From NCBI RefSeq assembly GCF_013167455.1, contig NZ_CP038328.1: DNA of 64,000 nt; one strand, written 5' to 3'. Of the stretch, positions 36,001-39,000 are shown piece by piece. How positions within the stretch are numbered: position 1 is the first letter of the stretch; the number at the start of each line of letters is the position of its first letter. The position numbers were made by a program. This DNA comes from Escherichia coli O157:H7 (GTDB taxonomy: Bacteria > Pseudomonadota > Gammaproteobacteria > Enterobacterales > Enterobacteriaceae).

Positions 36001-39000
36001 GGGATTATTTTTACATTGCATATTATTACCAGAAGCGACTGGAATACTAAGCACATCATAAAAATTATCATCACATGGTATATCTGAAACACACGAAAGC
36101 ATACCTAAAGTTATGCTGTATAAACAGGTGGCTAATCCCAAGGGGATCGATTCCAGAAATCGGGTTCAACGGATACTGATAAAAATTCCACCTACCTTCC
36201 AGCCCAATCGGAGCCTGAGTGTTATACCGCCCCTGCTGCGGTTAATGTTACCGATAATAGTTATAGTACAGCCCTGATTCATCATCATACTACTGCTGCG
36301 GCAGTCTGATGAACTATTGCTTTTACGGATTCTCCTTATTCTTCCTTCTATCCATTCGCTTTAGCTTTTTGAGCTCTTGAAGTTTGCTCTTTGCATCAAT
36401 ATTACCGTTATTTACAGCGAATTCCATCCAATAAATAGCTCTATTCAAATTATAATATTCTGATAATGTTGGATTTGTATCTGATAAAAAGACCCCATAA
36501 TTAAACTGCGCTGTAACATTCCCCTGAGATGCTGATTTTTCTAAGTATCGCAATTGTTTGTAAATGTTATTTTTAGTAAAGCAGTAATATTGATATAGTC
36601 GAAATGATGCCTCTGAATCACCATGTTGTGATTTATACTTCAGTTTCATCAACTTTTCTTCACTTAAATCATAGGTCATTGCTGTAGACCCCATCATACT
36701 TTCGTTTTGTTTTATTTTCACATCAGCACCATGCAATTGACAAATAAAAGAGAAATAAAAAAATAGTAACAAGCATGCTTTCATACATCTACAACCTATC
36801 TTATATCACTGGGTTTTTCTGGCGTACCTTGCATATTAGAAATGGGGTGCCCAGATGGCCCATATGTTATCCAATTACCAAGGTCTTTTGTTGTTATAGC
36901 CATTAGATCCTTATTTGAATTAAGGTTCGTTGGTGCTGTTAGCACTGTATCCATTTTTAACTTACCATTAGTTCCTCGCCCCCACCACGTCCATAGCGTG
37001 TCAGGTCCTATTACATTTGTATGTAACTCTTTAGCTAATTGGCTAGCAAATGAATTTTGTCCTTTACCTGTATTACAAGAAAATAACCAAACTGTCATCC
37101 CATCTTTATAATTCCCATCAAATTTAATTAGATATGCTAGATCTTTAGCTGTCATGATACTGCGCGTTGCGGATTCAATAGATGTGGGGGTACCATGCCC
37201 CCCGATTGTGAAAACGCCTGGGATATTAATCTCATCAGCTACAGAATGGATAAGATCACTTTCGGGGTATAAATTTATATCAACCAAACCTTGCGGATCT
37301 ACATTTATGACCGGATTCAACGGATACTGATAAAAATTCCATCCCCCCTTCAGTCCAATCGGATCCTGAGTGATATATCGCCCGTGCAGCGGGTCATAAT
37401 AGCGGTGGCGGTTGTAATACAGGCCGGACTCCTCATCATACTGCTGCCCCGGCAGGCGGATAAGCTGCTGCAGCTGATGCGGGTTCTCTTCATTCAGCAG
37501 GTTGCCCCATTCATCGTATTCTGCGCACCATTCTGTTGCCCCTTCCGCACTGATAAGCGCCAGCGGCAGGCCGCGATGGTCGCAGTGGTACAGGTGGATT
37601 TTTCGCGCCGGCGTGTATACCGGGTCCATCTGGCTTTGCATCTGCGCCACAGTCAGGCCGCACGATGCCAGCCAGCGGCGGCTTTCCTCACTCACCCGGT
37701 CAGCCAGGATTTCACTTTCCAGCCGGTCGAGCATCTGCACCAGCACCGGCGGGAACACCACACTGCCACCGTCTTCGCCGCCGGACTGCTGAAGCGCATC
37801 CGCCAGGCTGCGGCGCTGCGTTTTCGCCAGCTCACCGGTGGCGGTTTCAACCCTGATGAGTGGCGTGAAGCTCCCCGGCTGATAAATCGTCTGGATGCGG
37901 GTTCTGTCGTTCTGTATTGTGGTCAGCCGGTCGCCGTCCCAGCCGTACCAGGTCACTTGCGGTTTCCGTGACAGCGACATCCAGCCCGTCAGGTCCCGTT
38001 CACGTCGCCACACCCGTTTTGCCACCCTGCGGCCCAGCGGGTCGTAAAGATAGCGGCTTTCGACCAGCGGCTCTTCATATTGTGTCCGCGTGTAGTGCAC
38101 CAGCCGGTGCTGACTGTCGTAATGGTACCGGTGAGTCCGCTCATCATCCGTGCGGATAACCCCTTCCGGGATGAGGTCGGTTTTCTCTGTCAGCCTGCCG
38201 TGACGGTCATACCAGTAAAGATAGTGCGCGTCACGGGCGATACGGTTATCCGGCCACATGCTGAGGGTGCTGTCCGGGTGCAGCTCCGGGTCGGGCAGGC
38301 GGTTACCTGCCGGGTCCGTGGCATACGGGATGCGGATATCCAGATTCGCTGCGGTGGTGTGAACGCCGGTCAGCCTGCCGGAGTCGCTGTAGCTGTAACT
38401 CCGGGTCTGGCGCGGGCTGCTGATGCGGATGAGTTCGCCGTTGTCGTTCCAGGTGTAATCGCGGTCATACTGCAGGCTGTTCAGGTGCTGGCTCTGTAAC
38501 TGCCCGGCAGGGGTATAAGCGGTGGTGAGTTCATAACGGCCGAATCTGCGCAGCGTTTTCCGGTGCAGGCGGTCGCGGGTGAAATCCACCAGCGGTGTGT
38601 CGCCGAGCTTCATGCCTGCCAGCCAGCCGCTGCCATAGGTCAGCCATTCCACGGCGGGCAGGCTGTCCGGTATACAGCGGTTCGCCAGCCCCTGCGCGTT
38701 GTAAGCGTGTCTGGTCTCATGCTGCCAGAGCAGTGCTTCCGTCTGCGGGTGATGCACCGTCTGACGCTCACCGGTCAGCCGGCCTTTCTCATCATACCCG
38801 TAATGCACCGTCACCCGGTGCCCTTCGCTGATATGGCTGATGTCTGTCAGCCAGCCGCGTTCGTCATACTGCCAGCGCTCTGCGGTTTCACCCTTCACGG
38901 TGCGGTGCGTGAGGCGGTCTGCTTCGTCATAGTGCCAGTGGGTGACCAGCCCCTCATCCTCGCTGCGGATAAGTTTGCCGGTCAGGTCGTGGTGATAACG

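Follow-up and report, generated by a model that had tools for sequence, protein, structure and literature searches.

A predicted caspase-fold cysteine peptidase at the C-terminus of RhsA in Escherichia coli O157:H7 and YibG, its candidate exported immunity protein

The toxin class Tox-Caspase was catalogued by Zhang et al. in 2012 as a domain with a caspase-like fold and conserved His and Cys residues, which occurs together with RHS repeats in gamma-proteobacteria, with type VI secretion systems (T6SS) and with type VII secretion systems (T7SS) (PMC3482391). Most of its copies were regarded as releasing peptidases and the C-terminal ones as likely toxins, and arrays of copies were described, some of them devoid of catalytic residues (PMC3482391). 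The class was defined by comparative genomics only, and no site of action was proposed for it. In the open-access literature, no other paper using the term Tox-Caspase was found, nor any functional study of Tox-caspase or of the genes yibG and yibJ discussed below. Here, a member of this class is described in the rhsA region of E. coli O157:H7, contained in a stretch of 64,000 nucleotides (hereafter the window; RefSeq assembly GCF_013167455.1, contig NZ_CP038328.1). The C-terminal tip of RhsA is probably the toxin cargo of this Rhs protein, a clan CD cysteine peptidase of about 150 residues and of the Tox-Caspase type, closest to the Pseudomonas aeruginosa effector Tce1 and to the cysteine protease domains (CPDs) of peptidase family C80, which would act in the cell envelope and be blocked by YibG, the product of the adjacent gene.

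The C80 CPDs, known from Vibrio cholerae MARTX and from Clostridioides difficile TcdA and TcdB (PDB 3fzy, 3eeb, 3ho6), are activated by inositol hexakisphosphate (InsP6), a compound that bacteria do not have, and process their own protein in cis, freeing other effectors in eukaryotic cells without being toxic themselves. They exceed the tip domain by about 50-100 residues (about 205-250 residues versus about 150) and, unlike the proteins that carry them, RhsA has no downstream domain to release. Tce1 (PA0256; DUF4347; PDB 9qpe) and Tce2, published in 2026, are putative cysteine protease effectors of the P. aeruginosa H3-T6SS, and the toxicity of Tce2 in yeast is lost with the C115S substitution (PMC13323088). 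Like the tip, they combine a CPD-like fold with a His/Cys dyad. Their delivery is by the T6SS, in which they travel as free cargo in Hcp3 rings, not as Rhs tips, and they have no immunity gene; the sequence identity between Tce1 and the tip is 12%. The logic proposed here for the tip and YibG is also that of the Tae/Tai pairs of T6SS cysteine amidases, in which a lone-cysteine hydrolase works in the periplasm and the immunity protein is exported; in the Tae enzymes, though, Cys precedes His and the fold is the papain-like one of NlpC/P60.

The C-terminus of RhsA was already considered in a 2020 in-silico study of enterohaemorrhagic E. coli (EHEC) EDL933, which found it to resemble C. difficile toxin A (I-TASSER TM 0.73), read this likeness as small-GTPase inhibition, and named the protein encoded downstream of rhsA as an immunity candidate, a Sel1/TPR protein of 132 aa (PMC7216683). 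The original prediction made from this DNA had placed the tip outside the known Rhs toxin types, a view that does not hold in the light of this report and of the cataloguing of Tox-Caspase on RHS proteins in 2012. With its caspase-like fold, its conserved His and Cys and its C-terminal position on an RHS toxin, the tip is a member of the catalogued class, membership being assigned here by description and not with the authors' profile.

The tip of RhsA and its His/Cys dyad

The rhsA gene (36796-41025, minus strand) encodes 1409 aa followed by a stop and is identified by the list of open reading frames (ORFs), by the NCBIfam model RHS_core and by nine YD repeats. According to NCBIfam and the translation, its N-terminal region and YD-repeat shell (37285-41025, minus strand) end at a boundary motif of the PxxxxDPxGL type, as in Rhs polymorphic toxins, and DUF6531 is matched significantly at residues 46-123 (Pfam, E 4.8e-18). 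RHS_core (NF041261) covers residues 1-1247 of the 1409 with 2644 bits (cut-off 2000) and Rhs_assc_core (TIGR03696) residues 1170-1247. Because both models end at residue 1247, the boundary between core and tip lies where the original prediction had put it, and the 162-aa tip that it had delimited agrees with the translation. This tip (36796-37284, minus strand), predicted to be a clan CD cysteine peptidase domain (caspase-fold, CPD/DUF4347-like), consists of 489 nt, that is, 162 codons and a TAG stop, and its translation ends in PEKPSDIR. The turn to AT-rich DNA that had been noticed at this point is also found, the GC fraction passing from 0.58-0.68 (about 0.6) in the Rhs core to 0.39 in the tip and to 0.31-0.35 in the downstream gene. 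This distinct composition, together with a tightly linked small gene and an orphan module downstream, is characteristic of Rhs toxins.

Searches with the tip alone gave nothing in Pfam up to E 10, only noise in NCBIfam (E ~0.2) and no sequence match in the Protein Data Bank (PDB), and a word-indexed protein search returned relatives from E. coli and Salmonella only. When 1.84 billion cluster representatives were searched exhaustively with phmmer, 562 relatives were recovered at E<=1e-3, 80 of them at E<=1e-10. For the most part, these are tips at the C-terminus of an Rhs protein or of another polymorphic toxin, and some are T7SS-type actinobacterial proteins with WXG100-like N-termini. No signal of a nuclease or a deaminase, the kind of result named beforehand as contrary to a peptidase, appeared. 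Domain position and conservation were scored on 165 of the 562 relatives. The domain, or its last copy, stands at the extreme C-terminus in 144 of these, and a Rhs-type boundary motif, PxG[LWMIV], lies just ahead of it in at least 84; the domain start of the O157 tip, VD(I/L)NLFP, is common to many relatives.

The two catalytic candidates of the original prediction, His30 and Cys70, each expected to follow a beta-strand, could be located and stand out in the whole family. His30 (codon at 37195-37197, minus strand), the predicted general base, belongs to a GGHG motif after strand E24-28 and has the context GGHGT in the tip, and Cys70 (codon at 37075-37077, minus strand), the predicted nucleophile, belongs to an L-x-S-C-x-T-G motif after strand E64-68 and has the context FSCNT. 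In an alignment of 59 curated family sequences, which are 20-53% identical to the tip and have a mean column identity of 25%, all sequences agree at H30 and C70 and at no other column, which is far beyond chance. Across the 165 aligned domain copies, H30, G31 and C70 are each conserved at 98%, T72 at 86% and G73 at 93%, and seven positions (G31, L67, G73, A80, L83, V91 and G136) reach 90% or more. With regard to an InsP6-binding basic cleft like that of the CPDs, the column profile contains no strongly conserved Lys/Arg cluster, its highest basic position being 54, with 64% K/R.

The AlphaFold2 model computed on the 59-sequence alignment is confident (pLDDT 90.8, pTM 0.87). In it, strand 24-28 leads to H30(-G31) and strand 64-68 to C70, which is the His-before-Cys order of clan CD, and the chain adopts the alpha/beta/alpha sandwich common to caspases, legumain, gingipain, clostripain, CPD and CHAT. 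Clan CD peptidases make up 12 of the 13 top structural matches, with scores of 9.0 for the DUF4347 T6SS effector Tce1 of P. aeruginosa (9qpe), 8.4 for the CPD of V. cholerae MARTX, 7.9 for that of TcdA, 7.5 for Lys-gingipain and 6.9 for the CHAT protease, followed at lower values by TcdB, C11 clostripain-like enzymes, RgpB and legumain. The best PDB match returned by Foldseek for the model was a CPD, 3eeb (probability 0.96).

Sequence comparisons give fainter signals towards the same enzymes. In a PDB profile search, the H and C of the family fall on the catalytic pair of a plant legumain, though without significance (E 0.47), and relatives in AFDB50 that are 33-34% identical to the tip are labelled 'Peptidase C80 family protein' or 'DUF4347 domain-containing protein'. 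Pfam DUF4347 (PF14252) is matched by 4 of the 59 family members at E<=1e-3 and by 14 at E<=0.1; other weak Pfam matches among the 59 are to C13, CHAT, C80 and C25, Peptidase C80 (PF11713) being matched by one member (E 0.037) and not by the tip. Since the tip itself has no match to PF14252 in the Pfam search and so few members reach E<=1e-3, the family borders DUF4347 without being covered by it. Because the invariant dyad, the model and the structural and weak sequence matches agree, the caspase-hemoglobinase fold, which had been proposed in place of a papain-like one from the order of His and Cys, is well supported, and to judge from the model the tip is very likely a clan CD Cys/His enzyme.

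Three candidates were discarded in the course of these comparisons. A match to Kgp in the PDB profile search (3m1h, E 0.2) was rejected, as it places residues 56-109 on a non-catalytic domain. An alpha/beta-hydrolase reading of the 'HG ... SC.TG' motifs was dropped after the fold search, and a preprint on the Stv domain (PF21527) was set aside, as the C-terminal domain it deals with is another one, linked to C80-like domains by co-occurrence only.

A peptidase of this fold need not be a toxin. It could be argued that the tip is a leftover, a non-toxic CPD-type domain for release or autoprocessing on an Rhs protein that has lost its real toxin. The statement of Zhang et al. on the releasing role of most Tox-Caspase domains (PMC3482391) speaks in favour of this, and so do the AFDB relatives that join the domain with pierisin-like, TNT or enterotoxin-type domains, the protein P0165, with ADP-ribosyltransferase domains upstream of its copy, and giant actinobacterial proteins with 4-5 internal copies, some of which lack H or C. 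However, the fold occupies the tip up to about residue 152 in the AlphaFold2 model, leaving no space for another toxin, and the domain is C-terminal in the great majority of the relatives scored, as counted above. Moreover, an invariant dyad together with a conserved, tightly linked partner gene in diverse taxa is a signature of toxin and immunity, and of 5426 complete E. coli genomes, 3510 (~65%) contain the DNA of the tip plus yibG. A leftover peptidase is therefore regarded as extremely unlikely, and a toxin cargo is preferred.

The giant proteins deserve a description of their own. P0025, P0028, P0029, P0031 and P0033 (3140-6827 aa) hold 4-5 internal domain copies each; H or C is lost in two of the five copies of P0025, and P0028 additionally contains five SCO1664-family (TIGR03843) modules. 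WXG100-like N-termini are present in P0025 and P0029, and likewise in the related giants P0043, P0052, P0065 and P0100. Internal arrays in giant actinobacterial proteins, some copies being without catalytic residues, are thus a trait that the tip family shares with Tox-Caspase. They fit the idea of a 'releasing peptidase array' put forward by Zhang et al., and in the giant T7SS proteins effector domains may be released in cis by the internal copies.

At the other end of the size range, standalone relatives of 159-306 aa (P0063, P0077, P0104, P0107, P0108, P0112 and P0119) have an N-terminal Sec signal peptide of their own, no Rhs or other carrier, and a version of the domain that reads 'KLDFIP...GVEGHGTP...ACETGKG'. 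A scan of genome contigs with the pattern NSFAQQLA, taken from a further alignment (A3), returned 20 stretches, none of which was confirmed as a related locus.

YibG and the proposed site of action

The protein of 153 aa that the original prediction had seen downstream of the tip is YibG. Its gene (36323-36784, minus strand) starts 11 nt past the stop codon of the tip and encodes a Sel1/TPR-like protein (Pfam TPR_27, E 3.3e-4; Sel1 weak), the predicted cognate immunity protein. Codons 1-20 (36725-36784, minus strand) specify a predicted Sec signal peptide (MKACLLLFFYFSFICQLHG, then A), with a maximum 11-residue hydropathy of 2.5 and cleavage predicted to follow G19 or A20. Downstream genes were compared at ten Gram-negative Rhs loci (the window, L003, L004, L006/L007, L008, L009, L011, L013, L015 and L017). 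At nine of them, the gene directly downstream of the tip encodes a YibG-like Sel1 protein. These proteins share the motif G(D/N)xEAxFRLYxYY, and seven of the nine are found by phmmer with YibG at E 6e-16 to 7e-6; the one from L017 was classed as YibG-like by eye, from its Sel1 motif. An N-terminus of the export type (signal peptide, lipobox or anchor) is present in nine of the ten downstream proteins, the lipoboxes being ILAGC in L008 and TVGC in L017.

It is quite likely that the tip is a toxin and YibG its immunity protein. A precedent for Sel1-repeat immunity is given by the PldB immunity proteins PA5087/PA5088, as cited in PMC7216683, although the known Sel1 immunity proteins neutralise phospholipases and not peptidases. 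The immunity families listed for Tox-Caspase are also different, namely Imm36 and Imm57 (PMC3482391), and not Sel1-type proteins such as YibG. No earlier report of an exported Sel1 partner of the tip was found, and this is apparently the one aspect of the system that had not been described.

At three of the loci compared, the start of the immunity gene is obscured in the public record. In L004 (7482-7551), the gene was called too far downstream, which hides the signal peptide, and the true start adds MKKHQMLLTCLLVSSFNIMQA. In L011 (9850-10300), the immunity ORF is uncalled in the public contig, and in L015 (3607-3668), a frameshift at the 3' end of the toxin gene overlaps and hides the immunity start, MRYFLFIFITIPLISGG.

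The hydrophobic N-terminus of YibG is kept in all seven full-length enterobacterial orthologues listed, and in two rearranged or truncated ones, despite divergence of its sequence. This conservation argues that the 153-aa start is real, and the N-terminus is predicted to be a Sec signal peptide. A toxin that acts in the periplasm would make sense with an immunity protein predicted to be exported, and on these sequence features the balance leans slightly towards the periplasm as the site of action.

The proposed mechanism runs as follows. The Rhs shell would enclose the tip, sparing the cytoplasm of the producer, and the Rhs aspartyl autoprotease would cut at the DPQGL boundary. Delivery into a neighbouring Gram-negative cell would then take place, probably by the T6SS, and the released domain, with Cys70 acting as the nucleophile and His30 as the general base, would attack a peptide bond of some essential component of the envelope, by cleavage or possibly by transamidation. 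Sibling cells would be guarded by YibG, which, as a Sel1-repeat protein exported to the periplasm, would bind the toxin and block it.

As to the chemistry, the structural neighbours favour a protein endopeptidase, while the transamidases of clan CD would allow for cell-wall chemistry. In the latter case, the same fold and dyad would serve an amidase or transpeptidase whose substrate would be the stem peptides of peptidoglycan or the link between Lpp and peptidoglycan. Such an activity would agree with an immunity protein predicted in the periplasm, with the presence of clan CD transamidases and ligases among the structural matches, and with the neighbouring orphan module, which is of the L,D-peptidase type, a type directed at the cell wall. 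That enzymes of clan CD are able to transamidate is known from GPI transamidase and the legumain ligases. Among the structural relatives, the nearest (Tce1, the CPDs, gingipain and CHAT) are protein endopeptidases, though, so that cell-wall chemistry appears improbable and cleavage of an envelope protein is preferred.

The means of delivery is less clearly marked in the DNA. The original prediction spoke of a PAAR-like domain at the N-terminus and hence of the T6SS. A 'KPAAR' string is present in RhsA, and long EHEC Rhs proteins have been called PAAR-containing (PMC7216683), but the PAAR_motif match itself is not significant (Pfam, E 0.18; residues 2-20, model positions 51-69 of 70). The annotation of window positions 14,001-64,000 (50 kb) lists no T6SS gene, whether vgrG, hcp, PAAR-only or another, and rhsA thus counts as an Rhs gene without T6SS linkage. 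Delivery of the tip by the T6SS is nevertheless plausible because homologous tips are linked to vgrG elsewhere, with Rhs genes that adjoin VgrG, PAAR and DUF2169 genes in L003 and L006/L007, and because EHEC possesses a T6SS (PMC7216683).

A number of points weigh against an envelope-acting Rhs toxin blocked by YibG. The first is the one just given, that rhsA has no vgrG beside it and a PAAR match below significance. The model of tip and YibG together, a check that had been proposed at the outset, was made as a fusion, tip-(GGGGS)6-YibG, from an alignment of unpaired rows and 8 paired ones. Each half is folded with confidence, whereas the pTM of 0.58 means that no complex is predicted confidently, a result that does not speak against binding. 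The signal peptides were assigned from hydropathy values and inspection by eye, not by a trained predictor, and the downstream protein of L006/L007, alone among the ten, is without an export signal. Actinobacterial relatives of the tip are followed by apparently cytosolic proteins, and in Perna's annotation of EDL933 YibG is a 132-aa form that lacks the signal (PMC7216683). Finally, Tce1 and Tce2 are non-toxic in the cytoplasm of E. coli and apparently anti-eukaryotic (PMC13323088).

Several of these points would be accommodated if the same enzyme attacked a cytosolic protein of the target cell from within its cytoplasm, in the way that the papain-like toxin Cpe1 attacks GyrB/ParE. In that case, the hydrophobic start of YibG would be either an anchor in the membrane or an artefact of annotation, and its Sel1 domain would work from the cytoplasm. 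It is general knowledge that most characterised Rhs toxins act in the cytoplasm, and the signal-less homologue of L006/L007, the shorter annotated YibG and the soluble proteins downstream of the actinobacterial members all agree with such an arrangement. Against it stand the export-type N-termini at nine of the ten Gram-negative loci, two of them with canonical lipoboxes, the conservation of the hydrophobic N-terminus in enterobacterial orthologues while the N-terminal sequence itself diverges, and the positive charge at the extreme N-terminus (MK, MR, MKK), which predicts that the C-terminus faces the periplasm. Cytoplasmic action is accordingly considered unlikely, and action in the envelope is retained.

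As a further alternative, EHEC could use the tip primarily as an anti-eukaryotic effector against host cells, like Tce2 of P. aeruginosa. Its nearest solved relative, Tce1, and the paralogue Tce2 were proposed to be anti-eukaryotic, Tce2 being toxic in yeast and not in E. coli (PMC13323088), and host targets were favoured by the 2020 in-silico paper (PMC7216683). However, Tce1 and Tce2 have no immunity gene, whereas a candidate one always accompanies the tip; commensal E. coli, K-12 and bacteria of environmental metagenomes commonly carry the module; and the tip sits in a classic array of orphan modules. A primary role against host cells is very unlikely on these grounds, and the antibacterial toxin remains the preferred reading.

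Distribution of the tip and the surrounding locus

The genome count given above was obtained with a query of 1031 nt comprising yibG and the tip, which is 100% identical in many O157:H7 chromosomes. The DNA of rhsA as a whole is likewise 100% identical in O157:H7 genomes, where the gene is annotated 'RHS element core protein'. In K-12 MG1655 (L002, 7678-8163), the same tip is the orphan pseudogene yibJ, which is identical at 161 of 162 positions, a TAG replacing Q82, and sits upstream of an intact yibG. Nucleotides 1-3731 of O157 rhsA align to the core of K-12 rhsA at 98.2% and nucleotides 3261-4230 to K-12 yibJ at 97.2%. The two alignments overlap in a shared core segment of 470 nt, which is likely the recombination zone that joined core and tip, and K-12's own RhsA-CT and yibA are missing from the O157 locus. 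A 2-kb query across the junction shows that the fused (rhsA-tip) and the orphan (yibJ) arrangements both occur across E. coli.

RhsA of O157:H7 would have the tip as its main toxin; in K-12 the tip is an orphan and is silenced. Because K-12 has kept an intact yibG beside the nonsense-mutated copy of the toxin, it would be immune to the RhsA of O157:H7. A wider proposal, put forward tentatively, is that the tip is the first clan CD peptidase to serve as a periplasm-acting interbacterial toxin, that it is delivered by Rhs and T6SS, that it cuts or transamidates an essential protein of the envelope or a peptide linked to peptidoglycan, that a family of exported Sel1-repeat immunity proteins including YibG neutralises it, and that K-12 has this immunity. 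If the preferred reading of the tip and YibG is right, yibG, a gene of the y-ome, would gain a function as an immunity protein, a widespread class of antibacterial toxins with the caspase fold would become tractable in E. coli as a model, the predicted periplasmic action would confine the hunt for a substrate to the envelope, and the tip would be linked to the Tce1/Tce2 effectors.

At another place in its genome, E. coli, O157 included, encodes one more Rhs tip with the caspase fold, a paralogue of the tip described here. Three E. coli entries of AFDB50 (A0A376S9M4, A0A9P2VKJ6 and A0A793N7A2) are 31-35% identical to the tip. The paralogue is probably that of z0268, the 'PAAR' Rhs of the T6SS island, which was likened to the RtxA cysteine protease domain in the 2020 paper (PMC7216683).

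Read along the plus strand, the ORFs of the region follow the order mtlD, mtlA, yibI, yibH, a degenerate orphan module, yibG, the 1409-aa Rhs gene, yibF and selA. The orphan module (35181-36289, minus strand) lies downstream of yibG in the direction of transcription and is the counterpart of K-12 yibS/yibW/yibV/yibU. Its first part, annotated as a pseudogene in RefSeq, is a degenerate fragment of an orphan Rhs core whose tip resembles an L,D-peptidase (35705-36289, minus strand). The fragment contains an internal stop, and the ORF of its tip (97 aa, 35705-35998) gives weak matches to Tlde1_dom (E 0.009) and YkuD (E 0.045). It is followed by a frameshifted immunity gene of the Imm57 family (35181-35699, minus strand; RefSeq annotation transferred from L001, 4882-5400), which is homologous to K-12 yibV and its neighbours with 99.5% DNA identity. 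The whole looks like a decayed module of the L,D-peptidase type (Tox-LD-peptidase), and the link to Imm57 noted for gamma-proteobacterial Tox-Caspase may reflect this neighbouring module of the rhsA locus.

On the other side of rhsA, yibF (41254-41862) is followed by selA and selB. The window also holds ehaG, the gene of a trimeric autotransporter adhesin, and a gene of the Fic family, both of which are unrelated to the tip.

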